From positions 4,593-68,592 of the forward strand of contig JAAZAR010000008.1 of assembly GCA_012514235.1 (NCBI GenBank): a DNA stretch of 64,000 nucleotides. Reading direction: 5' to 3'. The first letter of the stretch is position 1. Every line of letters starts with the position of its first letter. The translations under genes and the position numbers were made by a program. Below the pieces are notes generated by a model. That model did no database searches and had not been told where the DNA came from. It saw only the letters and a list, made by a program, of their open reading frames with translations. Below, one piece after another: positions 48,239-63,493 of the stretch. Origin of the DNA: Actinomycetota bacterium (GTDB lineage: Bacteria; Actinomycetota; Thermoleophilia; UBA2241).

Positions 48239-48260
48239 TGCGCGGCCGCGGCGGCCGCGG

Positions 48261-48289: not shown

Positions 48290-48302
48290 CCCGTTCCTGC
48301 GT

Positions 48303-48492: not shown

Positions 48493-49089
<597 letters not shown>

Positions 49090-49233
49090 GTCGAGGGACC
49101 TCCGTCGCCGTCCTGCTGGTGGCGAGGTCGACGCGCGCGGCAGGGCCGCGCGGGCGTGTTCCTCGTCGTCAGCGTACTCCTTCTGCCGCCCGGCCGGGAA
49201 CGTCGCGCGCGCTGCCGCATGGACGCCGCGCGG

Positions 49234-49893
49234 TCACGAACGAGACGCGGCGATCGCCTCGCGGATGAGCCGCACGCCGCGTGAGGCGTCGTCCGCCCAG
49301 TGGTCGGCGCCGGTCCACTGCGAGGTGTGCTCGTCGACGATGCCGCCGCCGATGATGATGGGCACGCCGCGCAGCTCGTCCTCGGCGCGCACGGCGTCGA
49401 TGGTCGCCTTCATGCCGTCCGTCGCGATGGTGAGCAGTCCCGAGAGGCCGATGATGTCCGGCCGCAGTTCGGCCGCCTTGCGCACGATCTCGTCGGGCGG
49501 CACGTCGACGCCCAGGTCGTGGACGACGATCCCGTACGACCGCAGCATCATGTTGACGATGTTCTTGCCCAGGTCGTGGATGTCGCCGCGCACGGTCGCG
49601 ATGAGCACGCTGCCGTGTGTGGCGTCCTCCGTCTCGGGCGGCAGCAGCGGTCCCAGCGCGACCATGGCCTCGCGGAAGATCTCCCCAGCCATGATGAGGC
49701 CGGAGATGAAGTACTTGCCGGACTGGTAGTGCTCGCCGACCCAGCGCATGCCGAGCTGGCACTCCTCGATGATGGCGAGGGGATCGTCGCCGGCCGCGAT
49801 GCGGGCGTTGACCGCATCCAGCGCGCCCTGCTCGTCGAGCGCGGCGATGCGCGCCGCGAGCGACGCCGGGTCCAGGCTCTCGTACTCTGTCAT
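49234..49893 (-). CDS. Cobalamin-binding corrinoid protein (B12-binding_2 cap + B12-binding Rossmann domain), regulator-linked type (CP1)
   Basis: 219 aa with the His-on motif VRGDIHDLGKN, GLSGLL, and IIGGG. ATGA overlap with the GntR gene upstream. An AAGGAGGAG RBS lies inside the GntR 3' end. Confidence 0.85.
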   Translation of the reverse strand: MTEYESLDPASLAARIAALDEQGALDAVNARIAAGDDPLAIIEECQLGMRWVGEHYQSGKYFISGLIMAGEIFREAMVALGPLLPPETEDATHGSVLIATVRGDIHDLGKNIVNMMLRSYGIVVHDLGVDVPPDEIVRKAAELRPDIIGLSGLLTIATDGMKATIDAVRAEDELRGVPIIIGGGIVDEHTSQWTGADHWADDASRGVRLIREAIAASRS

Positions 49894-50675
49894 CGGCGTC
49901 TCCTCCTTGCGCCGGCCCTGCCCTCCGGTGCCGGCGCCCCGACGCTCGCGCGGAACGAGAACAGCTCACCCCGGGAGATGAAGCATCCCCAGCTCATCGG
50001 CTTCTCGTCGTAGCCGTAGAAGATGTGCTCCAGGACCCACGCCGCGGAACCGGCCGGCAGGCGCAGCCTGCCGGCCTCCTCCTCCGTGAGCACCGAAGCG
50101 TGCAGGATGAGCTCGCCGCGCTTGGGCCCCGAGCCCGCCCCGCCCTCGAACATGTCGCGGAGGGCGGTGACGTCGAGCTCGGATTCGATGGTAGGCCGGG
50201 TCGGATCGTAGATGAGCGACTCGCGGTGGTAGATGAGGGGCGTGTCGCCCCGCTGCAGGATGCGCCGTATGGACACCACGTGGGTGCCGTCCGGCACGCC
50301 GAGATTGGCGGCGGCGCGCGGTCCGGCAGGCAGGACGCGCGCCTCGACCACCCTCGCCGTCACGTCCGGCTGGGACAGGATCTCGTGGAACTCGCTGAGG
50401 TCGAAGGTCGCCGTCGCGAGGCGCAGCGGCTGCACGAACGTGCCGCGGCCGCGCGTGGTGGTGACGGCTCCCTGGTCGAGCAGCATGCCGATAGCGCGCC
50501 GCACCGTCATGGGGCTCACGTCGTAGGCGGCGCAGAGCTCGGACTCGGTGGGCAGCTGGTCGCCCGCCTGGTACTGGCCGCTGGCGATGGCTCCGCGCAG
50601 GATGTTCACCAGCTGGATGTACGCCGGTTCATAGGAAGAACGGTCGATCCCGCGCCCCTGTGGGATGGTCGCCAT
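49890..50675 (-). CDS. GntR-family (HutC subfamily, UTRA effector domain) transcriptional regulator (GntR1)
   Basis: A winged-HTH region (LPTESELCAAYDVSPMTVRRAIGMLLDQGAVTTTRGRGTFV) and a UTRA-like C-terminal half. The start is the ATG at 50675; the ORF is open to 50741. Confidence 0.85.
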   Translation of the reverse strand: MATIPQGRGIDRSSYEPAYIQLVNILRGAIASGQYQAGDQLPTESELCAAYDVSPMTVRRAIGMLLDQGAVTTTRGRGTFVQPLRLATATFDLSEFHEILSQPDVTARVVEARVLPAGPRAAANLGVPDGTHVVSIRRILQRGDTPLIYHRESLIYDPTRPTIESELDVTALRDMFEGGAGSGPKRGELILHASVLTEEEAGRLRLPAGSAAWVLEHIFYGYDEKPMSWGCFISRGELFSFRASVGAPAPEGRAGARRRRR

Positions 50676-50741
50676 GCGCCTGCCAGTCTCGGTCTCGTGC
50701 ACGATGCGGATTCTATCAGCGCCGCAGAACGGGAGCGGCAC

Positions 50742-50774
50742 TTGCCTTCGACAAAATATCTATACATTATGTCC
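50742..50774 (+). promoter_or_regulatory. Candidate promoter/operator in the GntR1-module A divergent region (TTGCCT..; shared motif GACAAAATATCTATACATTATGT)
   Basis: This is an AT-rich island in ~70% GC DNA. The motif at 50750-50774 recurs at 52826-52850. Confidence 0.5.
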
Positions 50775-50820
50775 TACCGAGACACAAGGCGCCGTGCGCG
50801 CGCCGTACAGGGAGGTACAC

Positions 50821-51456
50821 ATGTCGAAGGAGCTGACGAACGCCATCGTCGGCATGGACGAGGCGGAGGCCATGCGTCTCGTCGACGAGATGCTCGACGC
50901 GGGCGCCGACCCGGCTGACGTGCTGGAGGAGGCCAAGGCCGCGATGACCGTGCTCGGCGAGAAGTTCGAGTGCGAGGAGGCTTTCATCCCGGAACTCATC
51001 ATGGGCGGCGAGATCATGAAGGGCATCGCCGACGAGCTCAAGCCCCACATCACGGGTGGGTCGACGGCGCAGAAGCGCGGCACGGTCGTGCTCGGCACCG
51101 TGGCCGGCGATATCCACGACATCGGCAAGGACGTGGTCGTCCTCATGCTCGACGTCAACGGGTACGACGTGCACGACCTGGGCATCGACGTCCCGGTCGA
51201 GCAGTTCGTCGAGGCCGTCAAGGAGCTCAAGCCGCAGGTGGTGGGTCTCTCCGGCCTGCTCACCCTGGCGTTCGACTCCATGAAGGCCACCATCGACGGC
51301 ATCGCGGCCGCCGGCCTGCGCGACCAGGTGAAGGTCATGATCGGCGGCTCGCCGGTGGACGAGCAGGTCTGCGCGTACACCGGCGCCGACGGCTGGGGCC
51401 GGGATGCGGCAGCCGCGGTGCGCATGGTCGCCGAGTGGACCGGGAGCGCGGCATGA
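50821..51456 (+). CDS. Cobalamin-binding corrinoid protein, methyltransferase-linked type (CP2)
   Basis: 211 aa with the cap-domain motif EAFIPELIMGGEIM and the His-on motif VAGDIHDIGKD, plus GLSGLL. A GGGAGG RBS is present. Confidence 0.88.
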   Translation: MSKELTNAIVGMDEAEAMRLVDEMLDAGADPADVLEEAKAAMTVLGEKFECEEAFIPELIMGGEIMKGIADELKPHITGGSTAQKRGTVVLGTVAGDIHDIGKDVVVLMLDVNGYDVHDLGIDVPVEQFVEAVKELKPQVVGLSGLLTLAFDSMKATIDGIAAAGLRDQVKVMIGGSPVDEQVCAYTGADGWGRDAAAAVRMVAEWTGSAA

Positions 51457-52709
51457 CGGCCGCGCCCGAGGAGCTCTATGCGGAGCGCGAGCGGCGCTTC
51501 AACGACGCGGTGGCGCTGAAGGGGACGGACGTCATCCCCGTCATGCCGCTGACGGTGCACAACTTCCCGACTCGCCTCAAGGGCATCTCGAACAAGGTCG
51601 CGGGCTACGATCACGAGGCCCGCTGGCAGGCCACCAAGGAGGCCACCCTGCGGTTCGGCTGGAACTTCGCGCCGACCAACGACGTGCTCGCCTCCGACTT
51701 CTTCGCCTCCTTCGGCTCCAAGCAGATGATGTGGGCCGGGGAAGAGGGGGGTCTCGCCGACGACGCCCCGCATCAGTGGGTCGAGGACGAGTACGTCAAG
51801 GCGGACGAGCTCGAGGAGTTCATCGCCGATCCCAACGGGTTCACGTTCACGAGGATCTTCCCGCGCATGGGGAGCAGGCTGGAGGGCCTCGGGCAGGTCC
51901 CGTTGCCGCCGCTGTACTGGTTCTCCAACGCCTACTACCTGCAGGTGCTCGGCAACATGCTGGGCATCCCGCCGGTCCGCGAGGCGCTGCGTGCCTTCCT
52001 CGACATGGCGGACGCGCAGGCGAAGACCAACGCGGCGAACGCCAGGTACCTCCAGGAGATGAAGGATCTCGGCTATCCGCCCACCTGGGCGGCCGCGATC
52101 ATGCCCGCGTTCGACGTGTGCTCCGACACGCTGCGGAGCCTGCGCGGCAGCACACTCGACATGTTCCGGCAGCCCGACACGCTCCTCAAAGCGATCGACG
52201 TCATGCAGGAGGCGACCCTCGGGCTGGTGCACGCGGCCTTCGCGGTCACCGGCGTGCCACGCCAGTTCATCCCCATGCACAAGGGTGCGGCGGGCTTCAT
52301 GAGCAACGAGCAGTACGCCAGGTTCTACTGGCCGACCTTCAAGGCCCTCATCGAGGAGTGCATCGCGGCCGGCATCACGCCGGTCCCGCTGTTCGAGGGC
52401 GACTACACGCCGCGCCTCGAGTTCCTGGCGGAGCTGCCGCCGGGCAAGGTCGCGGCGCACTTCGACCGCGTCGACCGCAAGAAGTTCAAGGAGGTGTGCG
52501 GCGACGTGCTGTGCTTCTGGGGCAACGTCCCGGCTTCGCTGCTCGTCACCGGGACGCCGCAGCAGGTCAAGGACGACGTCAAGGAGCTCATCGACCTGTT
52601 CGGCGAGACCGGGCTCATCATCGACGGCCCGGGCACGATCCCCGACCAGGCGAAGCCGGAGAACGTCGAGGCGCTGGCCGAGGCCGTCGAGGAGTACGGC
52701 CGGCGTTGA
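51453..52709 (+). CDS. URO-D (uroporphyrinogen decarboxylase)-fold, MtaA/CmuA/O-demethylase-MT-I-like putative substrate:corrinoid methyltransferase (MT-A)
   Basis: 418 aa. The segment FIPMHKGAAGFMSNEQYARFYWPTFKALI..PLFEGDY..HFD aligns by eye to the URO-D family core (lFDSWAG.LS...F.eF..Py.k.i..il.kG....D). ATGA overlap with CP2. Confidence 0.7.
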   Translation: MTAAPEELYAERERRFNDAVALKGTDVIPVMPLTVHNFPTRLKGISNKVAGYDHEARWQATKEATLRFGWNFAPTNDVLASDFFASFGSKQMMWAGEEGGLADDAPHQWVEDEYVKADELEEFIADPNGFTFTRIFPRMGSRLEGLGQVPLPPLYWFSNAYYLQVLGNMLGIPPVREALRAFLDMADAQAKTNAANARYLQEMKDLGYPPTWAAAIMPAFDVCSDTLRSLRGSTLDMFRQPDTLLKAIDVMQEATLGLVHAAFAVTGVPRQFIPMHKGAAGFMSNEQYARFYWPTFKALIEECIAAGITPVPLFEGDYTPRLEFLAELPPGKVAAHFDRVDRKKFKEVCGDVLCFWGNVPASLLVTGTPQQVKDDVKELIDLFGETGLIIDGPGTIPDQAKPENVEALAEAVEEYGRR

Positions 52710-52734
52710 CGCGCGGCGTTGACGCACGTCGCGA

Positions 52735-52787
52735 GCCGGCCGACGAAGTGTCCGTCGGCCGGTTCGTCCCGCCACGCGGAACGAACC
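52735..52787 (+). terminator. Two adjacent hairpins after MT-A, the second followed by a T-rich tract
   Basis: Hairpin 1 is GCCGGCCGACG-7 nt-CGTCGGCCGG (52735-52762). Hairpin 2 is GGTTCGTCCCGC-cac-GCGGAACGAACC (52761-52787), followed by GCTCCGCTCTTTG. Confidence 0.5.
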
Positions 52788-52812
52788 GCTCCGCTCTTTG
52801 ATACGCTGACGG

Positions 52813-52850
52813 TTGACAGGACTTTGACAGAATATCTATATATATGTGCT
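52813..52850 (+). promoter_or_regulatory. Promoter (TTGACA-18 nt-TATATA) with the shared operator-like motif GACAGAATATCTATATATATGT, upstream of the ABC transporter genes
   Basis: The -35 TTGACA is at 52813-52818 and the -10 TATATA at 52837-52842. The motif at 52826-52850 matches 50750-50774 (shared core GACA-AATATCTATA-AT). Confidence 0.55.
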
Positions 52851-52912
52851 GCTCACCAGACATGGGGTCGATCGGAAGGCCCCGCAACGTCCACCGGGAC
52901 AAAGGGGAGACT

Positions 52913-54157
52913 ATGAGACGTTTCAAGCAGACCTTCGGCATGGGGCTCGCCGTGCTGCTCCTGCTGAGCATCATGCTCGCGGGCGGCGTGCTGGCCGCCG
53001 GGTGCGGGAACGACGACGGCGCCGACGGCGAGAGCGGCGGTGAGCTCATCATCGGCGTCGACGCCTCCATGAGCGGTCCGCTGGCCGGTTTCGGCGCGTA
53101 CCAGAAGTGGGCCATCGACAAGGCCGTCGCCGAGATCAACGATGCCGGCGGTCTGGACGTCGGCGGCGAGAAGATGACCGTCAAGACGATCCTCTACGAC
53201 AACAAGAGCGACCCGAACGTCGCCTCGAGCAACGTCGACACGCTCATCAACAAGGACGGCGCGATCGCCATCATCGGCCCGGTGACCCCGGCCGTCGGCA
53301 ACGCCGCCGCCCTTGCCGCCGAGAAGAACGGCATCCCCTACCTCGAGACCGGCAACCCGATCGAGCCCTTCATCGCCGTGAAGGCCGACTCCGGCGGCTG
53401 GAAGTACGCGTTCAACTTCTTCGTGCTCGCCCCGCCGGTGGCCGAGAACGCGTTCAAGTTCCCGGTCGACCTGGGCCTCAAGACCAACATGAAGACCTTC
53501 ATCAGCGTCGACAACAGCCCCGACGGTCCCGTGTTCGGCCCGGCCTGCAAGGCCGCTGCCGAAGCCAACGGCTGGGAAGTCGTCGGCATGGAGACGCACC
53601 CTGCCTCGCAGACCGAGTTCAACAGCCTCATCTCGAAGATGAAGGCGTCGGGAGCCGACTACGTCTACGTGCTCGGCGACACCCCGTCCTTCGTCGCTCT
53701 CAGCAAGCAGATGGCTGCCGCCAACTACGCTCCGAAGATCCTCTACTACCAGCGTGGCGCGCAGCTCCAGGAGTTCGCGGACGCAGCCGGCGATCTCGCC
53801 AACGGCGTGACGCTCGAGGCCTACTGGCTGCCCACCATGCCGTACCCGGGTGCCGCCGAGCTCGGCGCCGCCTACGAGGCCGACACCGGCAAGAAGGCCG
53901 GCCAGATCCTCGGTCCGGAGTACGCCGCGGCCCAGATCATGATGCAGGCCATCAGCAGGGCCGGCAGCACCGAGCCCCAGGCCATCGTGGACGCCCTCGC
54001 GGCGACGGACGACACGTTCGTATGCGGCCCCGTCAAGTTCGACGAGAACCACACCTCCGCGCTGAACCTGGTCGTCGCCCAGTGGCAGGACGGCACGTCG
54101 CAGCAGATCTGGCCCGAGGGTGAGGGCGCGGTCCCGGCTATCTTCCCGATGCCCTGA
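52913..54157 (+). CDS. ABC transporter substrate-binding lipoprotein, LivJ/LivK (Peripla_BP_6) family
   Basis: A lipobox (LAAGC) follows the signal peptide. The family-typical N-terminal segment is IGVDASMSGPLAGFGAYQKWAIDKAVAEINDAGG. A GGGGAG RBS is present. Confidence 0.88.
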   Translation: MRRFKQTFGMGLAVLLLLSIMLAGGVLAAGCGNDDGADGESGGELIIGVDASMSGPLAGFGAYQKWAIDKAVAEINDAGGLDVGGEKMTVKTILYDNKSDPNVASSNVDTLINKDGAIAIIGPVTPAVGNAAALAAEKNGIPYLETGNPIEPFIAVKADSGGWKYAFNFFVLAPPVAENAFKFPVDLGLKTNMKTFISVDNSPDGPVFGPACKAAAEANGWEVVGMETHPASQTEFNSLISKMKASGADYVYVLGDTPSFVALSKQMAAANYAPKILYYQRGAQLQEFADAAGDLANGVTLEAYWLPTMPYPGAAELGAAYEADTGKKAGQILGPEYAAAQIMMQAISRAGSTEPQAIVDALAATDDTFVCGPVKFDENHTSALNLVVAQWQDGTSQQIWPEGEGAVPAIFPMP

Positions 54158-54203
54158 CCCTGCTCCACGCTGAACGTCTGATCTGAGAAGAGGAGACACG
54201 CCG

Positions 54204-55082
54204 ATGCCCAGCAGTACCGAACTGATCACCGCGATCCTCAGCGGGCTGGGCATCGGCGGCCTCTTCGCCGTTGCCGCGCTGGGGCTCTCCCTGGTGTTCG
54301 GCGTCATGCGGCTCATCAACCTCGCCCACGGCGAGCTCATCGTCCTGGGCGCCTATGTGGCCTACAGTCTCACGCAGTGGATCGGCATCGATCCCCTGCT
54401 GAGCATCGTCATCGTTGCGCCGGTGGTGGCTCTGGCCGCCTACCCGCTGCAGCGGTGGGGCCTCACCCCCGTGATGAGCAAGGGCGCCGAGGCGCCCTTG
54501 CTCATCACCTTCGGGGTGTCCATCGTCCTGCAGAACCTGTTCATCCTCATCTACACGCCCGACGTGCGCTCCCTGAGCGCGTCGTACTCGCAGGCCAACT
54601 TCACGATCGGCGGCATCACCATCCCCGTCATCTACGTCATCACGCTGGTGGTGGGCATCGTGCTGCTGTACGCGACACACCTGGTCGTGACCCGTACGGG
54701 CTTCGGCCGGCAGATCAGAGCCGGGTCCGAGGACCCGGCGGCTGCCGGCATGATGGGCGTCAACGTCAGGCGCATGTACGCCTGGACCTTCGCCGTCGCG
54801 GCCGGGTCGGCCGCCATCGCCGGCATCCTGGTCGCCCTGGCCTTCTCCTTCGCGCCCTCCGCCGGCACCGCGTACCTCATCACCGGGTTCGCCGTGGTCG
54901 TGCTCGGCGGCATCGGCAGCATCAAGGGCACGCTCATCGGCGGCCTCCTGCTCGGCGTGATCCAGAGCATCGGCGCCGCCTTTGTGGGCGACGGCTGGCG
55001 CGTCTTCATCGGCTGCGCCGTCGTCCTCGTCGTCCTGTCCATCCGGCCGCAAGGCCTCTTCGGCGCCACGGAGGGCAACTGA
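54204..55082 (+). CDS. ABC transporter permease, LivH type
   Basis: 292 aa, polytopic, with the LivH-like N-terminus GLFAVAALGLSLVFGVMRLINLAHGE. Confidence 0.88.
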   Translation: MPSSTELITAILSGLGIGGLFAVAALGLSLVFGVMRLINLAHGELIVLGAYVAYSLTQWIGIDPLLSIVIVAPVVALAAYPLQRWGLTPVMSKGAEAPLLITFGVSIVLQNLFILIYTPDVRSLSASYSQANFTIGGITIPVIYVITLVVGIVLLYATHLVVTRTGFGRQIRAGSEDPAAAGMMGVNVRRMYAWTFAVAAGSAAIAGILVALAFSFAPSAGTAYLITGFAVVVLGGIGSIKGTLIGGLLLGVIQSIGAAFVGDGWRVFIGCAVVLVVLSIRPQGLFGATEGN

Positions 55083-57679
55083 TGCAGACCGTCCTTCGCT
55101 CTCTCCGTTCGCCGAGGGTCCTTGCGGCGCTGGCCACCGCGATCGCGGCCGTCGTCGTGCTGGCGATCCTCCCGCCGTTCATCGGCCGCTACTACTCCCT
55201 CGTCATCTACGAGATGCTCGTGCTGGTCGCCCTCGCGCAGGCGTGGAACATGCTCGCCGGCTACGGCGGCCTGGTCTCGCTGGCGCCGGCCGTCTCCGTG
55301 GGCGTCGGCGCCTATACGGCCGCGGTGATCGGCGGCCACCTCGGCTGGCCGCTGCCGCTGCTGATCGTCTCCGGCGGTATCGCCGCGGGGCTGTTCGCGG
55401 TCGTCTTCAGCGTGCCGATGTTCCGCTTCCGCGGCCTCTACTTCGCCATCGCCACCCTCGTGCTGGCGCAGGCCGTGTACGTGTTCATGGTCAACTGGAA
55501 CGGCCTCGGCGGCACCACCGGCCTGTTCCTCACCGAGTACACGTCGCAGATCACGACGCTGTATCCCTACGCGCTCGCGCTCGCCGTCATCTCGACCGCG
55601 GTCATCTGGGTGGTGCTCAGGACCCGCCTGGGCCTGAGTCTCCGCGCCCTGCGCGACGACGAGGACACGGCGCAGGAGATCGGCGTCTCCACGTTCCGCA
55701 CCAAGCTCTGGGTGTGGGTGCTCTCGTCGTTCCTCATCGGCATGGTCGGCGCGCTCGAGGCACTGCGCCTCAGCGTCGTCACGCCTGACGGGGCGCTCTC
55801 CATCACGTGGACCATCAACATCGTGACGACGACGATCGTCGGCGGTGTCGGCACCATCATCGGCCCCGCCATCGGCGGCGTGTTCACCGTGTGGCTGGCG
55901 GAGAGCCTCGCCGACTACCCCGAGCTGCACGTGCTCATCACGGGACTCATCGTCATCCTGATCATCCGCTTCGCCCCGTTCGGCATCTGGGGCGTGGTCA
56001 AGCTGATCGCCGGCAGGTTCATCAAACGGAAGACGACGGAGGCCGGCGAGGAAGCCCAGATCGAGCTGACCGCCGAGCGGAGGGCCGCGTCATCGGCGGC
56101 GGCCGCGCAGATCGCCGGCGCGTTGAACGACGCGCCGGCGGAGGCCGCGGCCGCGGGCCCCGTGCTGCTCAGCTGCCAGGGCCTGACCAAGCGCTACGGC
56201 GACGTGGTCGCCGCCTCGGACATCACGCTCGAGGTCCGCAAGGGCGAGGTGCTCGGCATCATCGGGCCGAACGGGGCCGGCAAGAGCACGCTCGTCGGCA
56301 TGCTGAGCGGTGCCACGCACGCCACCTCCGGCACCGTCGTCTTCGACGGTCAGGACGTCTCGCACATGCCGTCCTTCAAGCGGGCGCGTCTGGGCATCGG
56401 CCGCACGCACCAGATCCCCAGGCCGTTCCGTCAGATGACGGTGCTCGAGAACCTGATGGTCGCCCGCCACTACGGGGCTCAGTCGTCGAGCGGCGGCGGG
56501 GTGTACGCCGAGTGCGAGACCATCCTGCACGAGCTCGGCCTGTGGGACGTCGCCCACGTCAAGGCCGAGGACCTGACGCTGCTGCAGCTCAAGCGGCTCG
56601 AGCTGGCGCGCACGCTGGCGCTCGAGCCCCGCATCCTGCTCATGGACGAGATCGGGGCGGGCCTCGTCGAGACCGAGGTCCTCGAGCTCATCGAGGTCAT
56701 CAAGGCCCTGCGACATCGCGTCGAGGCCATCGTCATCATCGAGCACATCATGGACGTCATCACCGAGTGCAGCGACCGGGTCGCCGTCCTGGACTTCGGC
56801 AAGCTCATCGCCGACGGCCCGGTGGCGCAGGTGCTGGCGGAGCCGGATGTCGTCTCCTGCTACCTGGGCACCGGGTGTGAGGAGCTCGTGCCGCGCGTGA
56901 CGCCTCACACGGTCAAGGAGGATGCCCGTCCGATCCTCTCGCTCGACGGCGTGTCGGCCGGCTACGGGCACTTCAAGGCGCTCTCGAACATCACCTTCGA
57001 CGTACACCAGGGCGAGGTCGTGGCCCTGCTCGGCACCAACGGCGCCGGCAAGACGACCGCGGCACGCGTCATCAGCGGCATGATCCCGGTCTCGACGGGC
57101 CGCATCACGCTGAGCGGCAAGGACATGACCGGGCTGCAGTCGCACGATGTGGCCAGACTGGGCCTGGCGCACTGCATGGAGGGCCGGCACATCTTCGCCG
57201 ACCTCACCGTGCACGAGAACCTCGTGCTGGCCGGGTCGGTCAAGAAGGCCGGCCTGCAGGACCGGCTCGCACGCGTGTACGACCTGTTCGAGGTGCTCGC
57301 CGAGCGCCGCGACAAGTCGGGCATGCAGCTCTCGGGCGGCCAGCAGCAGATGCTGGCCATCGGCCGCGCCCTGATGGCCGACCCCGACGTCATCATCTTC
57401 GACGAGATCGCGCTCGGCCTCGCGCCGGCGACGGTCGACCGTCTCTACGACACCCTCGTCAAGATCCGCGACGAGGGCACCACGATGATCCTCATCGAGC
57501 AGAACATGGAGCGGGGACTCAGCCTCGCAGACCGCGTGTTCGTGCTCGAGAAGGGCACGATCGCGCTGGGCGGCACTCCGGACGAACTGCGCGGAGACCC
57601 TCGCCTCGAGGCGCTCTACATGGGCGAGGCGCAGGCGGAAGTACCGACCGCGGCTGGCACCGCAAGGGAGGAACAGTGA
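55082..57679 (+). CDS. Fused ABC transporter protein: LivM-type permease + LivG-type ATPase + LivF-type ATPase in one 865-aa ORF
   Basis: There is no stop codon between the three domains. The permease (YSLVIYEMLVLVALAQAWNMLAGYGGLVSLA) runs to ~56000. ATPase 1 has Walker A GPNGAGKST (~56264) and Walker B ILLMDE. ATPase 2 has Walker A GTNGAGKTT (~57031), the signature LSGGQQQ, and Walker B IIFDE. Confidence 0.85.
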   Translation: MQTVLRSLRSPRVLAALATAIAAVVVLAILPPFIGRYYSLVIYEMLVLVALAQAWNMLAGYGGLVSLAPAVSVGVGAYTAAVIGGHLGWPLPLLIVSGGIAAGLFAVVFSVPMFRFRGLYFAIATLVLAQAVYVFMVNWNGLGGTTGLFLTEYTSQITTLYPYALALAVISTAVIWVVLRTRLGLSLRALRDDEDTAQEIGVSTFRTKLWVWVLSSFLIGMVGALEALRLSVVTPDGALSITWTINIVTTTIVGGVGTIIGPAIGGVFTVWLAESLADYPELHVLITGLIVILIIRFAPFGIWGVVKLIAGRFIKRKTTEAGEEAQIELTAERRAASSAAAAQIAGALNDAPAEAAAAGPVLLSCQGLTKRYGDVVAASDITLEVRKGEVLGIIGPNGAGKSTLVGMLSGATHATSGTVVFDGQDVSHMPSFKRARLGIGRTHQIPRPFRQMTVLENLMVARHYGAQSSSGGGVYAECETILHELGLWDVAHVKAEDLTLLQLKRLELARTLALEPRILLMDEIGAGLVETEVLELIEVIKALRHRVEAIVIIEHIMDVITECSDRVAVLDFGKLIADGPVAQVLAEPDVVSCYLGTGCEELVPRVTPHTVKEDARPILSLDGVSAGYGHFKALSNITFDVHQGEVVALLGTNGAGKTTAARVISGMIPVSTGRITLSGKDMTGLQSHDVARLGLAHCMEGRHIFADLTVHENLVLAGSVKKAGLQDRLARVYDLFEVLAERRDKSGMQLSGGQQQMLAIGRALMADPDVIIFDEIALGLAPATVDRLYDTLVKIRDEGTTMILIEQNMERGLSLADRVFVLEKGTIALGGTPDELRGDPRLEALYMGEAQAEVPTAAGTAREEQ

Positions 57680-58308
57680 CACAGGAGCTGACCCAGGCCA
57701 TCGTCGAGCTGCGTGAGGCCGACGCCCTGGCCATGGTCGACCGGAAGCTGGCGGAGGGGGTCGACCCCGTCGCCATCCTGGCCGAATGCAAGACGGCCAT
57801 GGACACGATCGGGGACAAGTTCGCCGCCGGCGAGGCCTTCATCCCCGAACTCATCATGGCCGGCGAGATCATGTCCGGCGTCTCGGCCAGGCTGAAGCCG
57901 CATCTGCAGTCGACGCCCGCGGACGACGACAAGCTCGGCGTCGTGGTCATCGGCACCGTGCAGGGCGACATCCACGACATCGGCAAGGACATCGTGGTCA
58001 CGATGCTCGACATCGCCGGCTTCGACGTGGTCGACCTGGGCGTGGACGTCAAGGTGGACGAGTTCGTCACCGCCGCACGGGAGAAGGGCGCGAAGATCAT
58101 CGCCATGAGCTGCCTGCTCACGAGCGCCATCGACTCGATGAAGAAGGTCGTCGCGGCCGCTCGCGAGGCCGGGCTGAACGACACGAAGCTCATGATCGGT
58201 GGCGCGCCGATCACGGAGCAGGTCGTCGCGTACACTGGAGCCGACGGCTACGGCAAGGACGCCGTGGAGGCCGTCGAGCTCGCCAGACAGTGGATCGGGG
58301 AGGCGTGA
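57676..58308 (+). CDS. Cobalamin-binding corrinoid protein, methyltransferase-linked type (CP3)
   Basis: 210 aa with EAFIPELIMAGEIM, VQGDIHDIGKD and MSCLLT. GTGA overlap with the fused ABC gene. Confidence 0.88.
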   Translation: MTQELTQAIVELREADALAMVDRKLAEGVDPVAILAECKTAMDTIGDKFAAGEAFIPELIMAGEIMSGVSARLKPHLQSTPADDDKLGVVVIGTVQGDIHDIGKDIVVTMLDIAGFDVVDLGVDVKVDEFVTAAREKGAKIIAMSCLLTSAIDSMKKVVAAAREAGLNDTKLMIGGAPITEQVVAYTGADGYGKDAVEAVELARQWIGEA

Positions 58309-59654
58309 TGGCGTTCACTGAAGACTGGAAGGACCTTGACGCGCGCCAGCGGTACGAGGCGCGCATGGACGCCTGGGCGAACCCGGCGGTCGAGTTCGAG
58401 TCGGACGCGGTCAGACAGCAGTATCAGGACCGCGTCCAGCTCTTCCGCGACGCCGTGGAGCTCAAGAAGCCGGCGCGCGTGCCGATCGCGCCGTGGATGA
58501 GCCTCTTCCCGGGTCTCTCCCAAGGGCTCACCGCCAAGGAGACCTACTACGACTACGCCAAGCTGGCCGATGCCTGGATGAAGTTCCACGCCGAGTACCG
58601 GCAGGACGTGCTGGCTTTCTCCATCAACATCGTGCCGGTGCACATCTACGACGCCCTGGACTACAGGCTCTACGACTGGCCGGGGCACGGCGTGGGTGAG
58701 GACTCGGGCTACCAGTACAACGAGGCCGAGTACATGAAGGCCGACGAGTACGACCTGCTCATCGCCGACCCCTCCGGCTACTGGCAGCGGTTCTACCTGC
58801 CGCGGGTCATCGGAGCGTTTGAGCCGTGGGCCACCCTCGACCCCTTCACCGATCTGGTCGAGGGTCCCACCGTCGGCCCGTTCTTCATCCCGTTCGGCAC
58901 GCCGCCGGTCCAGGAGATGCTCAAGAAGATGATCGACGCCGGCAATGCGGCCATGGAGTGGATCCAGAACTTCTCGGCGATGGACGCAAAGGCGACGGCG
59001 AAGTACGGCCTTCCGGGTTTCGCCGGCGGCGTGACCAAGGCCCCGTACGACATCCTCGGCGACACGCTGCGCGGCACGCGCGGCCTCATGCTCGACGTGT
59101 TCCGTCAGCCGGACAAGGTCCTCGAGGCGTGCGAGCGCCTGGTGCCGCTCGCCATCGACTGGGCGGTGCGCAGCAACGACAAGACGCGGCACCCGTTCGT
59201 CTTCATCCCGCTGCACAAGGGCGCCGACGGGTTCCTCAGCGACGCCGACTTCCGCACGTTCTACTGGCCGACGCTCAAGAAGGTCCTGCAGGGCCTGATC
59301 GACGAGGGTCTCGTGCCGCTGTGCTTCGCCGAGGGCGCGTACAACGACCGCCTCGAGGCGATCCACGACGAGGAGATCCCGGCCGGCAGGATGATCTGGA
59401 TGTTCGACGCCACCAACATGAGCGAGGCGAAGAGGCACCTCGGCGGCTACCAGTGCATCGGCGGCAACGTGCCGGGCGCACTGCTCACCACCGGGACCGT
59501 GCAGGACATGGACGACTACGTGCGCCAGCTCATCGAGGACGTCGCCAGGGACGGCGGGTTCATCCTCGGCTCGGGCATCGTCATCGACGAGGCCAAGCCG
59601 GAGTGCGTCAAGCAGATGATCGAGGCGGGCCTCAAGTACGGCGCACAGGCCTGA
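58308..59654 (+). CDS. URO-D-fold putative substrate:corrinoid methyltransferase (MT-B)
   Basis: 448 aa and a close paralog of MT-C. It contains FIPLHKGADGFLSDADFRTFYWPTLKKVL..CFAEGAY..MFD. TGATG overlap with CP3. Confidence 0.7.
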   Translation: MAFTEDWKDLDARQRYEARMDAWANPAVEFESDAVRQQYQDRVQLFRDAVELKKPARVPIAPWMSLFPGLSQGLTAKETYYDYAKLADAWMKFHAEYRQDVLAFSINIVPVHIYDALDYRLYDWPGHGVGEDSGYQYNEAEYMKADEYDLLIADPSGYWQRFYLPRVIGAFEPWATLDPFTDLVEGPTVGPFFIPFGTPPVQEMLKKMIDAGNAAMEWIQNFSAMDAKATAKYGLPGFAGGVTKAPYDILGDTLRGTRGLMLDVFRQPDKVLEACERLVPLAIDWAVRSNDKTRHPFVFIPLHKGADGFLSDADFRTFYWPTLKKVLQGLIDEGLVPLCFAEGAYNDRLEAIHDEEIPAGRMIWMFDATNMSEAKRHLGGYQCIGGNVPGALLTTGTVQDMDDYVRQLIEDVARDGGFILGSGIVIDEAKPECVKQMIEAGLKYGAQA

Positions 59655-59758
59655 GCGCCTGAGCTCGATGCGCGACCCCGGCGTCTGAAGGCGTCGGGTC
59701 GGACCGTGAGGCCCGCGAAGCGGGTGTGAGCCGGCGCTCAAGCGCCGGAGCCGAAGTC

Positions 59759-59796
59759 GACGGCGGGGGTCGCGAGGCCCCCGCCGTCAGCCTTTT
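59759..59796. terminator. Intrinsic terminator between the convergent MT-B and CP4 genes
   Basis: An 11-bp perfect stem (GACGGCGGGGG-8 nt-CCCCCGCCGTC) followed by AGCCTTTTCT on the + strand. Confidence 0.7.
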
Positions 59797-59823
59797 CTCG
59801 GCGGCGGCGAGCGCCGGGAAGGC

Positions 59824-60498
59824 TCAGGCGATGAGCGCGCGCACGAAGTCCAAACCGCGCGCCGCGTCGACGCACCAGCCGTCGGCGCCCAGGCGGTCGC
59901 TCACCATCCCGTCGACGGCGGCGCCGCCCAGCACGACCGGCAGGTGCGGGTGCCAGGCGGAGGACTGCCTCCGCACGAGGTCGATGGTCTCGCGCAGCGC
60001 CTCGTAGCCGGACGTGAGCAGGCACGAGAGACCCAGCACGTCCGGCCGCTCGCGCTCGACTGCCTCGGCGACGGCCTCCGGGGTCACGTTGACGCCGAGG
60101 TCCACCATCGTGAAGCCCTCGGCGTCGAGCAGCGCGACCACGATGTTCTTGCCGATGTCGTGGATGTCGCCGCGCACGGTGGCGATGACCATCTTCGCGC
60201 CGCCGGAGCCGGCCGCGGCGCCGCCGCCGGTCGCCGTGCCGGCCTGGGCGGCGCCGATGCGAGGGTAGAGCAGCTCGGCGGCTTCACGGATGATCTCGCC
60301 GGCCATGATGAGGGCCGAGATGAAGTAGGTGCCCTCCTCGTACAGCCGGCCCACCCGCTCCATACCGGTGCGACACTCGCCGACGAGCACGGCCGGATCC
60401 TCGCCCGCGCCGAGCCGCTCGCGGATCTGCGCGAGCGCCCCGCGCTCGTCCATGCGCACGATGAGCTCGTCGAGGCTGTCGCCGGGAGTGGTGCTCAC
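59824..60498 (-). CDS. Cobalamin-binding corrinoid protein, regulator-linked type (CP4)
   Basis: 224 aa from the GTG at 60498, which follows an AGGAAGGAG RBS. It contains GTYFISALIMAGEIIREA, VRGDIHDIGKN and LSCLLT. It lies 5 nt downstream of the GntR2 stop. Confidence 0.85.
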   Translation of the reverse strand: MSTTPGDSLDELIVRMDERGALAQIRERLGAGEDPAVLVGECRTGMERVGRLYEEGTYFISALIMAGEIIREAAELLYPRIGAAQAGTATGGGAAAGSGGAKMVIATVRGDIHDIGKNIVVALLDAEGFTMVDLGVNVTPEAVAEAVERERPDVLGLSCLLTSGYEALRETIDLVRRQSSAWHPHLPVVLGGAAVDGMVSDRLGADGWCVDAARGLDFVRALIA

Positions 60499-60503
60499 GA
60501 GGA

Positions 60504-61259
60504 TCAGACTCCTTCCTGGGGGCCGGGGATGCCGACCGTGGTGGTGAAGCTGAGCCGGTCGGCGCGGCCGACGAAGCGGCCCCAGCTCTCCGGCCGGTCG
60601 TCGAAGTCGAAGAAGAGGTGCTCGAGCACCCAGGCGAGCGTGCCGGGCTGCTCTCCGAGCTGGGACGCCTCCGTCTCGGTGAAGGCGGAGGCGTGCAGTG
60701 TGAGGCGGCCGAACTTGAGGTCCGAGCCGTGGGCGCCGGAGAAGAGGTCCTGCAGCGCCGTGGTGGCGAGCTCGGCCTCGACCAGCGGGCGGGCCGGATC
60801 GAAGACGAGGTACTCGCTGTGGTAGAAGACCGGCTCGTCGCCGCGCAGGAGCAGTCGCTTGATGGAGATGACGCGCTCGCCCTCCTCGCGCGCCAGCTTC
60901 TCGGCCACGCGCGGACCGGCCGAGACGATGCGCGCCTCGAGGATGCGCGCTTCGACGTCCGGGCTGGCCAGGTAGCGCATGAGGTCGCCGAGGTCGAAGC
61001 TGGCGGCGGCCAGCTGCGGGGGCTTCACGAACGTGCCGCGGCCGTGCTCCGTGACTACGACGTCCGCGCGGACCAGCTCGCCGATGGCCCGGCGCACGGT
61101 CATCGGGCTGACCGAGAACGCGGCGCAGAGCTCCGCCTCCGACGGCAGCCGGTCGCCGGGCCGGTACGCGCCGCCGGCGATGCGCTCGCGGATGGTGCGC
61201 GCGAGCTGCGCGTAGGGAGGCTCGAACGAGTCTCGGTCGATCGGCGGGCGGTCCTTCAC
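60504..61259 (-). CDS. GntR-family (HutC/UTRA) transcriptional regulator, paralog of GntR1 (GntR2)
   Basis: 251 aa with LPSEAELCAAFSVSPMTVRRAIGELVRADVVVTEHGRGTFV. The UTRA half is colinear with GntR1 (..AWVLEH(I/L)F..). Confidence 0.87.
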   Translation of the reverse strand: MKDRPPIDRDSFEPPYAQLARTIRERIAGGAYRPGDRLPSEAELCAAFSVSPMTVRRAIGELVRADVVVTEHGRGTFVKPPQLAAASFDLGDLMRYLASPDVEARILEARIVSAGPRVAEKLAREEGERVISIKRLLLRGDEPVFYHSEYLVFDPARPLVEAELATTALQDLFSGAHGSDLKFGRLTLHASAFTETEASQLGEQPGTLAWVLEHLFFDFDDRPESWGRFVGRADRLSFTTTVGIPGPQEGV

Positions 61260-61325
61260 CGGGGAGTTCTCCTCGTGCCACGTCAGCGCGTCCGGCTACT
61301 CTGTCGCGGCATTCTAGCACTCTCG

Positions 61326-61366
61326 GACAAACTTCCCTAGACCAGTAGGGTAGTGGTTGGTATGAT
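61326..61366 (+). promoter_or_regulatory. Candidate promoter/operator in the GntR2-module C divergent region
   Basis: The sequence is GACAAACTTCCCTAGACCAGTAGGGTAGTGGTTGGTATGAT. It contains an inverted repeat CCCTA-N6-TAGGG (61335-61350), a -35-like TAGACC, a 17-nt spacer, and a -10 TATGAT (61361-61366). The element GACAAA..CTAGAC resembles GACAAA..CTATAC at 50750. Confidence 0.45.
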
Positions 61367-61464
61367 GGCGCCGGAACCGGCTGGACGCGCCGACCGGCGC
61401 TTGGCCATGGGGGAGGCCGCGAGCCGCTTGCGGGCTCGCGCCCATCACAGACCAGGGAGGTTGC

Positions 61465-62100
61465 ATGTCATCAGCGCTCAAAGAAGCGGTGATCGAGCTG
61501 CGCGAAGACGACGCGCTGCGGATCACGAGAGAGGCACTGCAAGGGGGCGCCGACCCGCTCGACATCGTCGCCGCCTGCCGCGAGGCGATGGACGTGATCG
61601 GGCAGCGGTTCGCCGACGGCGAGGCGTTCATCCCCGAGCTCATCATGGCGGGCGAGATCATGAGCGGCATCACCGCGGAGCTGAAGCCGTACCTCAAGGC
61701 TGAGGGCTCCGGCGGCAAGCTCGGCACGGTCGTGATGTGCACCGTCCAGGGCGACATCCACGACATCGGCAAGGACATCGTCGTGACCATGCTGGACATC
61801 GCGGGCTTCGAGGTCGTCGACCTTGGCGTGGACGTGCCGGTCGCCAAGGTCGTGGACAGCGTGCGCGAGAGCGGAGCGCAGGTGGTCGGGCTGAGCGGCC
61901 TGCTCACCGTCGCCTTCGACTCGATGAAGGCCACGGTGGCCGCGCTCGACGAAGCCGGTCTGCGCGGCCAGGTCAAGGTCATGCTTGGCGGCGCCCCAGT
62001 GACGGACGCCGTGGTGGAGTACGCCGGGGCCGACGCATGGGGCAAGGACGCGGTCGACGCCGTCGAACTCGCCAGGCAGTGGACGGGAGGTGCGTCATGA
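61465..62100 (+). CDS. Cobalamin-binding corrinoid protein, methyltransferase-linked type (CP5)
   Basis: 211 aa with EAFIPELIMAGEIM, VQGDIHDIGKD and LSGLLT. A GGGAGG RBS is present. Confidence 0.88.
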   Translation: MSSALKEAVIELREDDALRITREALQGGADPLDIVAACREAMDVIGQRFADGEAFIPELIMAGEIMSGITAELKPYLKAEGSGGKLGTVVMCTVQGDIHDIGKDIVVTMLDIAGFEVVDLGVDVPVAKVVDSVRESGAQVVGLSGLLTVAFDSMKATVAALDEAGLRGQVKVMLGGAPVTDAVVEYAGADAWGKDAVDAVELARQWTGGAS

Positions 62101-63437
62101 CCCTGCCCGACAACTGGAGCGAACTCACCCCCGACCAGCGGCTGCAGTGGCGGCTGGACGCCTGGCAGAACATCCCCATCGAGTTCGCCTCTCCCGAGGT
62201 CGCCCAGGAGTATCGCGACCGCGTGCAGTTGTACCGCGACGTGCTCGCCGGCAAGAAGCCTGCGACGGTACCGATCGCTCCCTGGATCGGCCTGTTGCCC
62301 TTCCGCTTCTATGGGCACACCGCCAAGCAGGCCTACTACGACTATGAGATCTTCAAGGAAGACTGGTTCCGCTTCCATGAGGAGACCAGGCCCGACGGCA
62401 TCGGACTCACGTTGGGCATCGTGCCGGGCAAGCTGTTCGACATCCTCGACTACCGCCTCTACACGTGGCCGGGCCACGGCACGCCCGACGACACCTGCTA
62501 CCAGTACAGCGAGCAGGAGTGGATGAAGGGCGACGAGTACGCGGCGCTGATCCAGGACCCGGGCTCGTACTGGCAGCGGTCGTACCTGCCGCGCGTGTTC
62601 GGCGCCATGGAGCCGTTCTCCATGCTGCCGCCGTGGACGGACCTCGTGGAGATCCCCTTCACGGCGCCGTTCTTCGCCGGGTTCTCGGCGCCGCCCGTCA
62701 AGGAGATGCTGCAGAAGCTGGCCGAGGCCGGCGACGCGGCCATGGAGTGGCTGCAGGCGGCGATGGCCGCGGACGGCAGGGTCATGGCCACCCTCGGCAT
62801 CCCGCAGACGGCCGGCGGGGCGACCAAGGCGCCGTACGACACCCTCGGCGACACCATGCGCGGCACGCGCGGGCTCATGCTCGACAAGTTCCGCCAGCCG
62901 GAGAACGTCAAGGCAGCCATGGAGAGGCTCGTGCCGCAGTCGGTGGACTGGGCCAGGCGCTCCAACGACATGACCGGCAACCCCATCGTCTTCATCCCGA
63001 TCCACAAGGGCGCCGACGGGTTCATGAGCGACGCCGACTTCAAGGAGCTGTATTGGCCGACCTTCAAGGCCGTGCTGCTCGGCCTGATCGAAGAGGGTCT
63101 GGTGCCGTGGGTGTTCGTCGAGGGCTCGTACAACGAGCGCCTCGAGGTGATCGCCGACGAGGAGATCCCGGCGCATCGCATGATCTGGATGTTCGACGCC
63201 ACCGACATGCAGCGCGCCAAGGAGATCGTCGGCAAGCGGCAGTGCATCGGCGGCAACGTGCCGGCGGCGCTGTTCGCCATGGGCACCCCGGAGGAGATGG
63301 ACGCCTACGTCAAGGGCCTGCTCGAGACGACGGCTCAGGACGGCGGCTTCATCCTCAGCAGCGGGATCGTCCTGGATGAGGCCGACCCGGCCGCGTACAA
63401 GGCGTTCATCGAGGCGGGACGCAAGTACGGCAGGTGA
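62097..63437 (+). CDS. URO-D-fold putative substrate:corrinoid methyltransferase (MT-C)
   Basis: 446 aa with FIPIHKGADGFMSDADFKELYWPTFKAVL..VFVEGSY..MFD. ATGA overlap with CP5. Confidence 0.7.
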   Translation: MTLPDNWSELTPDQRLQWRLDAWQNIPIEFASPEVAQEYRDRVQLYRDVLAGKKPATVPIAPWIGLLPFRFYGHTAKQAYYDYEIFKEDWFRFHEETRPDGIGLTLGIVPGKLFDILDYRLYTWPGHGTPDDTCYQYSEQEWMKGDEYAALIQDPGSYWQRSYLPRVFGAMEPFSMLPPWTDLVEIPFTAPFFAGFSAPPVKEMLQKLAEAGDAAMEWLQAAMAADGRVMATLGIPQTAGGATKAPYDTLGDTMRGTRGLMLDKFRQPENVKAAMERLVPQSVDWARRSNDMTGNPIVFIPIHKGADGFMSDADFKELYWPTFKAVLLGLIEEGLVPWVFVEGSYNERLEVIADEEIPAHRMIWMFDATDMQRAKEIVGKRQCIGGNVPAALFAMGTPEEMDAYVKGLLETTAQDGGFILSSGIVLDEADPAAYKAFIEAGRKYGR

Positions 63438-63441
63438 GAGA

Positions 63442-63478
63442 GGACGGCGGCGGGGGCGTAGCGCCCCCGCCGCCGTCC
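63442..63478. terminator. Bidirectional terminator-like hairpin between convergent genes
   Basis: A perfect 17-bp stem (GGACGGCGGCGGGGGCG-tag-CGCCCCCGCCGCCGTCC) 5 nt after the MT-C stop. Confidence 0.65.
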
Positions 63479-63493
63479 GCCCGCGTACGGTGC

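Follow-up and report, generated by a model that had tools for sequence, protein, structure and literature searches.

A probable actinobacterial expansion of the MtvABC-type corrinoid-dependent demethylase system

Introduction

The best-known examples of corrinoid-dependent demethylation come from acetogens and methanogens. The stretch of DNA analyzed here (the window, 64,000 nucleotides of contig JAAZAR010000008.1 from an Actinomycetota bacterium) contains, at positions 49234-63437, the genes for five two-domain B12-binding proteins, three UroD-fold methyltransferases (MT), two HutC-type GntR regulators and one Liv-type ABC importer. What such a set of genes does in an actinobacterium, and from which donor to which acceptor it would move methyl groups, is the question that the locus raises.

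The enzyme system itself is already known. MtvABC of Moorella thermoacetica, reportedly described in 2001, comprises a methyltransferase I (MT I, MtvB), a corrinoid protein (CP, MtvC) and a methyl-corrinoid:tetrahydrofolate methyltransferase (MtvA), which is of the methyltransferase II (MT II) kind. The window locus is probably an expanded actinobacterial version of this system, and methyl transfer to a corrinoid as such is very likely. An original prediction, made from the sequence, had read the locus as a demethylase-like system of corrinoid methyl transfer, built of three MT I-CP modules with an importer and GntR regulators, and this reading is supported, the regulators being of the HutC type. 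Its statement that the locus could not be matched to a described system no longer stands, since the MT are MtvB-like and the relatives in other phyla hold the classical set of MT II and RACo activase.

Methyltransferases related to MtvB

The candidate MT I of the three modules A, B and C are encoded by the following genes:

51453-52709, plus strand: MTA, predicted MtvB-like MT I of the UroD superfamily, 418 amino acids (aa), PF01208 over residues 235-415
58305-59654, plus strand: MTB, predicted MtvB-like MT I, 449 aa from GTG (448 aa from the next ATG), PF01208 over residues 233-441
62097-63437, plus strand: MTC, predicted MtvB-like MT I, 446 aa, PF01208 over residues 200-444

The PF01208 matches are above the cut-off in the three proteins and cover mainly or wholly their C-terminal part. 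In blastp comparisons with reference MT sequences taken from Supplementary Data 3 of PMC13222342, the alignments with MtvB are full-length (about 410 residues), with 35% identity for MTB (E 2e-69), 33% for MTC (E 2e-61) and 29.5% for MTA (E 8e-51). The identity to MtoB1 is about 25% (E 1e-34 to 1e-36) and that to CdmB 23-25% (E 1e-28 to 1e-31); the similarity to OdmB, VdmB, CmuA, MecE and Bacillus subtilis UroD is marginal. Among themselves, MTB and MTC share 60% identity, against 32% between MTA and either of them. CdmB, the chloromethane:corrinoid methyltransferase I of Acetobacterium dehalogenans, is placed in the UroD superfamily beside the O-demethylases MtvB, MtoB, OdmB and VdmB (PMC13222342). 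Its structure (9rui) is the sole solved structure with strong sequence similarity to the window MT (phmmer, E 1e-30; E 3e-30 for MTA). In a neighbour-joining tree of 130 sequences, calculated without bootstrap, MTA, MTB and MTC all fall inside the MtvB superclade. They are far from HemE, with which the original prediction had considered that they might group.

The metal site points in the same direction. In an alignment with CmuA and MecE, the zinc-ligand HxC position is occupied by LFE in MTA, FAE in MTB and FVE in MTC, and the C-terminal zinc Cys is replaced by Gly in the three proteins; MtvB, MtoB and CdmB likewise do not have the His-x-Cys ... Cys zinc ligands. The MtaA models match far under their cut-offs (E 4e-4 for MTA, 9e-4 for MTC, no match for MTB), and with the HemE equivalog model TIGR01464 the MT score 19-27 bits against a cut-off of 303. 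Taken together, the homology to MtvB, the missing zinc site and the low HemE and MtaA scores indicate that, judged by sequence, MTA, MTB and MTC are MtvB-like MT I and neither decarboxylases nor thiol-directed enzymes of the MtaA type. Another MT group that was considered, MtaA-like and from obligate anaerobes, clusters apart from the O-demethylases and was set aside.

The AlphaFold2 model of MTB (pLDDT 92.1) is a UroD/MtaA barrel, and in Foldseek it matches UroD with a TM-score of 0.66 and MtaA (4ay7) with 0.71, both target-normalised. The CdmB structure 9rui is not among the Foldseek matches listed for this model, which was attributed to the library, whose entries reach only to 8 April 2026.

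Related loci were collected by scanning an alignment of MT homologues against one-genome-per-species contigs, which gave 588 related stretches (individual loci are cited below by their L numbers). For a census, genes were called in 82 related loci, the proteins were clustered, the large clusters were annotated with Pfam and NCBIfam, and the loci were mapped with custom hidden Markov models (HMM). In most of these 82 loci a CP gene stands directly upstream of the MT gene.

Two classes of corrinoid proteins

The B12-binding partners of the locus are the following:

49234-49893, minus strand: CP1, PF02607 and PF02310, motif RGDIHDLGKN, start overlapping the GntR1 stop by 4 nucleotides (nt), GntR-linked clade
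50821-51456, plus strand: CP2, carrier of module A, PF02607 and PF02310, TIGR02370 E 9e-51, MT-linked clade
57676-58308, plus strand: CP3, carrier of module B, PF02607 and PF02310, start overlapping the stop of the ABC open reading frame (ORF), MT-linked clade
59824-60498, minus strand: CP4, second regulator-linked B12-binding protein, PF02607 and PF02310, motif RGDIHDIGKN, GntR-linked clade
61465-62100, plus strand: CP5, carrier of module C, PF02607 and PF02310, 62% identical to CP3

The five CP (210-224 aa) each combine a B12 cap domain (PF02607) with a Rossmann domain (PF02310), at E 1e-11 to 1e-24. The motifs GDIHDxGK, SGLLT/SCLLT and GG correspond to the B12-binding signatures DxHxxG, SxL and GG, and the lower-ligand His motif that the original prediction had read in the five proteins is found in all of them as GDIHD(L/I)GK. 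Their matches to TIGR02370 (E 1e-34 to 1e-51, 117-172 bits) are under the 215-bit cut-off. CP2, CP3 and CP5 are mutually 53-62% identical.

The five CP had been taken as equivalent, which has to be revised. In a tree of 99 CP, those encoded downstream of a GntR gene (25 of 26) form one exclusive clade with zero MT-linked members (bootstrap 85/100), which spans Actinomycetota, Chloroflexota and Bacillota. CP1 and CP4 are inside this clade, and CP2, CP3 and CP5 belong to the MT-linked group. The locus is thus made of three carrier modules and two regulator-associated B12 proteins. The B12-binding motifs are kept in both classes. As the conserved operon of a GntR gene followed by a CP gene suggests, CP1 and CP4 most likely work with the repressor, in regulation or B12 sensing rather than in methyl carriage.

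Gene finding was based on the GC content at each codon position and on inspection of ORFs; the GC content at third codon positions (GC3) is 0.91-0.96 across the locus genes, and codon-position GC backs each gene. All genes of the original list (five CP, three MT, two GntR and the importer) are in place and match their Pfam families (PF02310/PF02607, PF01208, PF00392/PF07702 and PF13458). The three start/stop overlaps between CP and MT genes that it reported are of 4 nt each (CP2/MTA, CP3/MTB and CP5/MTC), and the junctions GntR1/CP1 and ABC ORF/CP3 overlap by 4 nt as well. The paralogy is also seen at the DNA level, with repeat families 60-79% identical between modules.

A fused Liv-type importer

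Upstream of module B, and in one operon with it, are the importer genes:

52913-54157, plus strand: substrate-binding lipoprotein, Peripla_BP_6 (PF13458, E 1e-50), lipobox LAAGC; the ribosome-binding site favours the start at 52913
54204-55082, plus strand: LivH-like permease, PF02653 E 5e-35
55082-57679, plus strand: fused LivM-like permease with LivG-like and LivF-like ATPases, 865 aa, PF02653 and two PF00005 domains, matched by the LivG and LivF models

The importer has the full set of a HAAT (Liv-type) system, namely a Peripla_BP_6 protein, two BPD_transp_2 permease domains and two ATPase domains. What sets it apart is a fusion, one ORF encoding the second permease together with both ATPases, with no stop codon between the domains. 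The same fused ORF is present in L006, L007, L009 and L010, and so it is not an assembly error. The matches of the binding protein in the PDB are distant and mixed, with Leu/Ile/Val-, urea- and aromatic-acid-binding proteins among them.

Regulators and candidate operators

The two regulator genes and the control elements found around them are:

49890-50675, minus strand: GntR1, HutC subfamily (winged helix-turn-helix and UTRA), PF00392 E 5e-19, PF07702 E 1e-15, 4-nt overlap with CP1
60504-61259, minus strand: GntR2, HutC subfamily, PF00392 E 8e-22, PF07702 E 1e-17, 53% identical to GntR1
50750-50767, plus strand: AT-rich promoter/operator element of module A, GACAAAATATCTATACAT, between -35 TTGCCT and -10 CATTAT
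52826-52843, plus strand: the AT-rich element again, GACAGAATATCTATATAT, ahead of the operon of importer and module B
61330-61355, plus strand: palindromic operator candidate of module C, AACTTCCCTA-GACCAG-TAGGGTAGTG, unique in the window
59759-59788, plus strand: GC-rich hairpin terminator with a stem of 13 pairs and then a T-rich tail, located where the MTB and CP4 genes converge

Both regulators are assigned to the HutC subfamily by an N-terminal GntR winged helix-turn-helix and a C-terminal UTRA effector domain. The gene call of GntR1 (261 aa) recurs identically in L090. The 18-nt AT-rich element has two matches in the window, with zero expected. Its core AATATCTATAyAT is kept in six relatives and stands at the same position in L006, L007, L010, L011 and L021; the element is also kept upstream of the binding-protein gene in L006, L009 and L010. 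The palindrome of module C is placed just upstream of the -10 TATGAT and over the predicted -35 hexamer of a promoter-like site (61338-61366). In L010 the two arms of its 10-bp inverted repeat, AACTTCCCTA/TAGGGAAGTT, match perfectly, and L006 and L007 conserve the repeat as well.

The leader of module C (61367-61464, plus strand, about 100 nt) contains GC-rich inverted repeats that are kept in L006 and L010. An Rfam scan of positions 48000-64000 found no riboswitch or other RNA family in this leader, a tRNA at 48303 being the only match.

Methyl acceptor and activase across phyla

The census shows how the partners of the MT I-CP pair are distributed:

Chloroflexota, 21 loci: MT II in 13, RACo in 11, DUF1638 in 10, GntR-CP pair in 7
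Acidobacteriota, 22 loci: MT II in 9, RACo in 9, DUF1638 in 0, GntR-CP pair in 0
Bacillota, 14 loci: MT II in 2, RACo in 1, DUF1638 in 4, GntR-CP pair in 8
Actinomycetota, 23 loci: MT II in 0, RACo in 0, DUF1638 in 9, GntR-CP pair in 14

For MT II, the representative protein hits PRK07535, a model of methyl-tetrahydrofolate:corrinoid methyltransferase (E 4e-98); for the activase, it hits AcsV/RACo (E 5e-133). The gene order that recurs in Chloroflexota is [CP<-GntR] divergent from [DUF1638-RACo-pterin MT II-CP-MT I(-MT I)-MFS], which is present in L027, L033, L034, L040, L043, L052, L066 and L072. The cluster family would normally pass methyl groups to tetrahydrofolate, and the actinobacterial branch differs. 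Concerning the window, the original prediction had stated that MT II and activase genes are absent; a six-frame HMM scan of its whole length detected neither a pterin-type MT II nor a RACo at E <= 1, and the statement is therefore correct. Among the conserved neighbours in Actinomycetota no substitute MT II was found, these being only nitroreductase-like proteins, DHA2 efflux pumps, TetR regulators, SAM methyltransferases and similar.

A conserved operon beyond the window end

The locus does not end at 63437, as had been assumed. At its right edge the window holds two more genes:

63494-63934, minus strand: H146, a His-rich protein of 146 aa, last gene of the conserved operon CP-MT4-DUF1638-CobW-like-H146
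63931-64000, minus strand: 3' end of a CobW-like GTPase gene (195 aa), cut at the window end

The DNA past this end was sought by exact-protein matches, which gave contigs of at most 3.5 kb. One of them (L001) is 99.95% identical to window positions 61848-64000 (2.15 kb), through H146 and into the GTPase gene, and then continues with cobW (PF02492, E 4e-39) and DUF1638 (PF07796, E 1e-40). The 195-aa orthologue in L006 matches the short CobW-related family of NCBIfam with E 5e-31, under the cut-off. H146 itself has no Pfam or NCBIfam match, and five orthologues were without a Pfam match even at E 10. It follows the CobW-like gene in L001, L006, L007, L009, L010, L019 and L094. H146 is always accompanied by the 195-aa CobW-like GTPase and DUF1638 (window 63494-63934, L001 1647-3512). 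It may correspond to a CobW C-terminal domain that has diverged, or else be a partner that handles metal. In the census, the short CobW-like GTPase and H146 occur in five Actinomycetota loci and in zero loci of other phyla.

In L006, L009, L010, L003 and L019 the operon begins with a sixth CP and a fourth UroD-like protein, MT4 (370 aa; L006 17321-18433 and L003 14081-15196, both on the minus strand). MT4 is closest to MtvB and CdmB. At the zinc positions of CmuA and MecE it aligns H-F-D ... G-C-D, keeping the His and Cys at two of the three, and its clade is found only in Actinomycetota loci in the 130-sequence tree. A compact form is present in L094, where [CP<-GntR] diverges from [CP-MT4-CP-MTA-like-DUF1638-CobW-H146]. 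Natural fusions DUF1638::CobW also exist (P0246 and P0306, of 442 and 420 aa). The fusion gene of P0246 (L093 10001-11329) directly follows a CP gene and a 370-aa URO-D gene of the MT4 type. With this operon included, the transcription units appear to be GntR1-CP1, CP2-MTA, binding protein-permeases/ATPases-CP3-MTB, GntR2-CP4, CP5-MTC and the convergent CP6-MT4-DUF1638-CobW-H146.

In the genes of L003-L052, DUF1638 carries three Cys (iAC, GlCs and DDCIa) and one His (gLH) that are conserved across Actinomycetota, Chloroflexota and Bacillota, a pattern that suggests a metal or iron-sulfur site. A model of a close DUF1638 homologue (pLDDT 82) had no significant match against the PDB (best E 5e-3, TM-score at most 0.25). 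In Phaeobacter inhibens, DUF1638 mutants have the same methionine-rescued fitness defect as those in the split methionine synthase genes, and the authors give no specific functional proposal for the domain (PMC5764234). Ruegeria pomeroyi contains more DUF1638 when grown on glycine betaine or other methylated N-osmolytes (PMC12478193). Given that DUF1638 is genetically tied to the corrinoid protein in Phaeobacter, a hint at reactivation lies just past the window end.

Other genes accompany the locus in Thermoleophilia. A nitroreductase-family gene is beside it in L006 (19397-20065, plus strand), L003, L009, L010, L012 and L019; its match to the BluB model is weak (E 3e-13, under cut-off). A DHA2/EmrB-type efflux pump adjoins this gene (L006, from 20088), and in L003 and L019 a third GntR-CP pair precedes the nitroreductase and efflux genes.

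Proposed mechanism

The Liv-type importer would bring a soluble methylated compound into the cell. Subsequently, MTA, MTB and MTC, to judge from their homology, would each methylate the Co(I) of the CP with which it is translationally coupled (CP2, CP3 and CP5), the methyl source being most likely the O-methyl group of a methoxylated, probably aromatic, compound. By homology, methoxylated compounds are the most likely substrate, and it is about an even bet that the donors are O-methyl compounds. The methyl-Co(III) would then be emptied by a second methyltransferase encoded outside the window. In the clusters of other phyla, this enzyme would be the pterin-binding one that forms methyl-tetrahydrofolate; in Thermoleophilia it would have to be either encoded elsewhere or replaced, with the MT4 of close relatives as the candidate replacement. 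Upkeep or reactivation of the cofactor would probably fall to DUF1638, the CobW-like GTPase and H146. The two HutC-type GntR proteins are predicted to repress the modules by binding the operators that overlap the promoters: the AT-rich element would serve module A and the importer-module B operon, and the palindrome module C.

Alternative explanations

Several observations weigh against an MtvABC-type demethylase system with methoxylated substrates. No MT II or RACo gene lies within 10 kb in 25 Actinomycetota loci (the 23 of the census, and L093 and L094, two actinobacterial loci obtained via DUF1638 homologues), so that, the window holding none either, the acceptor and the activation route are unproven. 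The substrate class is the weakest point, being insecure at 29-35% identity, and CdmB acts on haloalkanes although it is 31% identical to MtoB, an O-demethylase (PMC13222342). Nothing about the ligand can be read from the binding protein, which has mixed matches in the PDB and no subfamily in NCBIfam, and no aromatic-ring catabolic genes were seen nearby. As for CP1 and CP4, gene linkage and phylogeny are what suggests their regulatory role. The modules might be haloalkane (chloromethane-type) dehalogenating methyltransferases like CdmBC, given that CdmB provides the only solved structure strongly similar in sequence and shows that the clade is able to switch from O-methyl to halomethane substrates (PMC13222342). 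The identity to CdmB is nevertheless lower than that to MtvB and falls short of the threshold of at least 40% that the authors used for their CdmB conservation set (PMC13222342). Moreover, a gas does not need a binding-protein-dependent ABC importer, yet module B shares its operon with one, and the three modules, with their separate repressors, point to several soluble inducers; haloalkanes are therefore quite improbable donors. N-methyl or S-methyl compounds (methylated amino compounds or methylthiols) in place of methoxylated aromatics are unlikely too, if less so. In their favour, the importer is of the Liv/urea (HAAT) type, in which the characterised members have amino acids, amides and urea as ligands, the UroD-family enzymes include the methylthiol enzyme MtsA, and about 30% identity does not fix the substrate class. 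On the other hand, the nearest characterised homologue is an O-demethylase, the window MT are without the zinc site used in thiol chemistry, and the characterised N-methyl MT I are of the MttB, MtbB and MtmB families, outside the UroD superfamily (PMC12478193).

A different possibility concerns the machinery rather than the donor: Thermoleophilia may have a distinct system, with neither pterin MT II nor RACo, in which MT4 is the acceptor methyltransferase and DUF1638, the CobW-like GTPase and H146 provide alternative activation or cofactor loading. It would account for the contrast between Actinomycetota (none of 23 loci, nor L093 and L094) and Chloroflexota (MT II in 13 and RACo in 11 of 21), and it fits with the conserved operon CP-MT4-DUF1638-CobW-like(-H146), the fusions P0246 and P0306, the partly retained HxC...C site and Actinomycetota-only clade of MT4, and the conserved three Cys and one His of DUF1638. 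Nevertheless, genes that are missing within 10 kb may still be present in the genome, and activases are promiscuous and can be encoded elsewhere (PMC10805028); MT4 is itself closest to two MT I, MtvB and CdmB, and the DUF1638 model has no informative structural match. Such a separate machinery is thus doubtful, although it is the least improbable of the rival readings. Equally tentative is the joint proposal that the GntR-linked CP are cross-phylum sensors of the corrinoid state and that Actinomycetota carry out MtvB-like demethylation without MT II and RACo, by means of MT4 and DUF1638/CobW/H146; the sensor CP could inform the HutC repressor of B12 availability or of the methyl donor, for example through methylation by MT I. 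Finally, that the UroD-like genes are HemE decarboxylases of haem biosynthesis, with the B12 proteins as unrelated neighbours, is almost certainly wrong. The PF01208 match and the UroD structures at the top of the Foldseek list would agree with it, but this identity was rejected on the low TIGR01464 scores, a merely marginal resemblance to B. subtilis UroD in blastp (at best, for MTB, a local match of 133 residues at 26%) and the presence of three paralogues that each overlap a CP gene, a pairing kept in most related loci.

Relation to known systems

The expanded MtvABC-type system proposed here shares with MtvABC the full-length homology of MtvB (29-35%), the absence of zinc ligands on both sides and a two-domain CP as partner. 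In Neomoorella (L085) and in other phyla, related loci have the order CP-MT I-pterin MT II. The locus departs from MtvABC in that no MtvA-type MT II is present in the window or near the actinobacterial relatives, in its three (four in relatives) parallel MT I-CP modules, in the ABC importer within an operon and in the HutC regulators paired with their own B12-binding proteins; its host is a Thermoleophilia-type actinobacterium and not an acetogen.

MtoABCD of Methermicoccus shengliensis, a methoxydotrophy system, and CdmBCA of A. dehalogenans have MT I of the same clade (E 1e-28 to 1e-36, across most of their length) and a separate corrinoid protein. The identity is only 23-26%, and CdmB takes haloalkanes via hydrophobic channels. 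Mto encodes MT II and activase together. The cdmBCA cluster likewise differs from the window in including its own MT II, CdmA (PMC13222342); the Mto and Cdm systems are covered in PMC8630106 and PMC13222342.

The split methionine synthase/MtgBC glycine betaine system of marine Roseobacters (Phaeobacter inhibens and Ruegeria pomeroyi) is, like the window locus, a case of methyl transfer through a corrinoid protein outside acetogens and methanogens. There, as in the context of L001, a DUF1638 gene is linked to the corrinoid protein, and in Phaeobacter it is required (PMC5764234, PMC12478193). Its MT I is, however, of the MttB superfamily, and DUF1638 is found there with a RamA-like activase, whereas here it is found with a CobW-like GTPase.

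In the stand-alone B12-binding co-regulators (AerR-CrtJ and PpaA-PpsR) and in CarH, a protein with a B12-binding domain is genetically coupled to a transcription factor. The likeness of CP1-GntR1 and CP4-GntR2 to these is a functional analogy only, as the transcription factor family differs (HutC/GntR). Unlike the AerR-type co-regulators, CP1 and CP4 keep the full cap and Rossmann architecture of methyl carriers.

No account of a regulatory pair of GntR and corrinoid protein, nor of its occurrence across phyla, was found in the literature. The same applies to an actinobacterial branch with MT4-DUF1638-CobW-H146 and without MT II or RACo nearby, to a multi-module island with a fused ABC importer and to anything specific on an actinobacterial MtvB.

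Genomic context

The original prediction had placed the locus in an actinobacterial housekeeping setting, and its relatives bear this out. The best relatives of MTB are from metagenome-assembled genomes (MAG) named Actinomycetota bacterium (96% amino-acid identity) and uncultured Thermoleophilia (92% and 79%). Over 11 kb the DNA of L006 shows 93% identity to the window with the gene order unchanged, the island architecture recurs in L006, L007, L009 and L010, and in L003 the flanking genes are syntenic (add, PAS-GGDEF, helicase and GATase genes). The remaining window was assigned by eye with Pfam spot checks and contains housekeeping genes (dnaE, his operon, glyA, atp operon, murA, cell-envelope genes, ahcY, mtnA, secA and prfB), together with add, a PAS-GGDEF protein, a DEAD helicase and pabA/trpG.

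The tRNA gene (48303-48375, plus strand, 68 bits in Rfam) is located between the DEAD-box helicase and the pabA/trpG-like amidotransferase gene. In the cell-envelope/sugar-nucleotide region, two ORFs are well supported, 24133-25773 (plus strand, 546 aa, GC3 0.92) and 33601-34209 (plus strand, 202 aa, GC3 0.86), and neither has a Pfam match. By eye only, ahcY (S-adenosylhomocysteinase) adjoins mtnA (methylthioribose-1-phosphate isomerase) at 34206-36628 (plus strand), and glyA is at 10500-11768. These three are methyl-cycle and folate genes without evident link to the corrinoid locus.

Implications

Actinobacteriota are reported to express mtxB genes, which encode substrate:corrinoid methyltransferases, for methylated oxygen compounds in the thawing permafrost peat of Stordalen Mire, where Bog-752 is among the three genera named as most actively methylotrophic (PMC10805028). 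The locus L014 is from a MAG with the isolate name bog_752 and presumably belongs to this genus.

If MT II and activase are encoded elsewhere in the genome, the window locus would be a larger but otherwise ordinary example of a known system. How DUF1638 is connected with the CobW-like GTPase, natural fusions included, is relevant to the still unsolved part that DUF1638 plays in the function of corrinoid proteins, and the machinery of MT4, DUF1638, CobW and H146, if true, would assign a function to this domain. The GntR repressor with its own B12-binding protein may couple gene expression to the state of cofactor or substrate in a new way. Common soil Thermoleophilia carry several MtvB-like modules and a dedicated importer, which would let them consume methoxyl (lignin-derived) or other methyl groups and so supply folate metabolism with one-carbon units.

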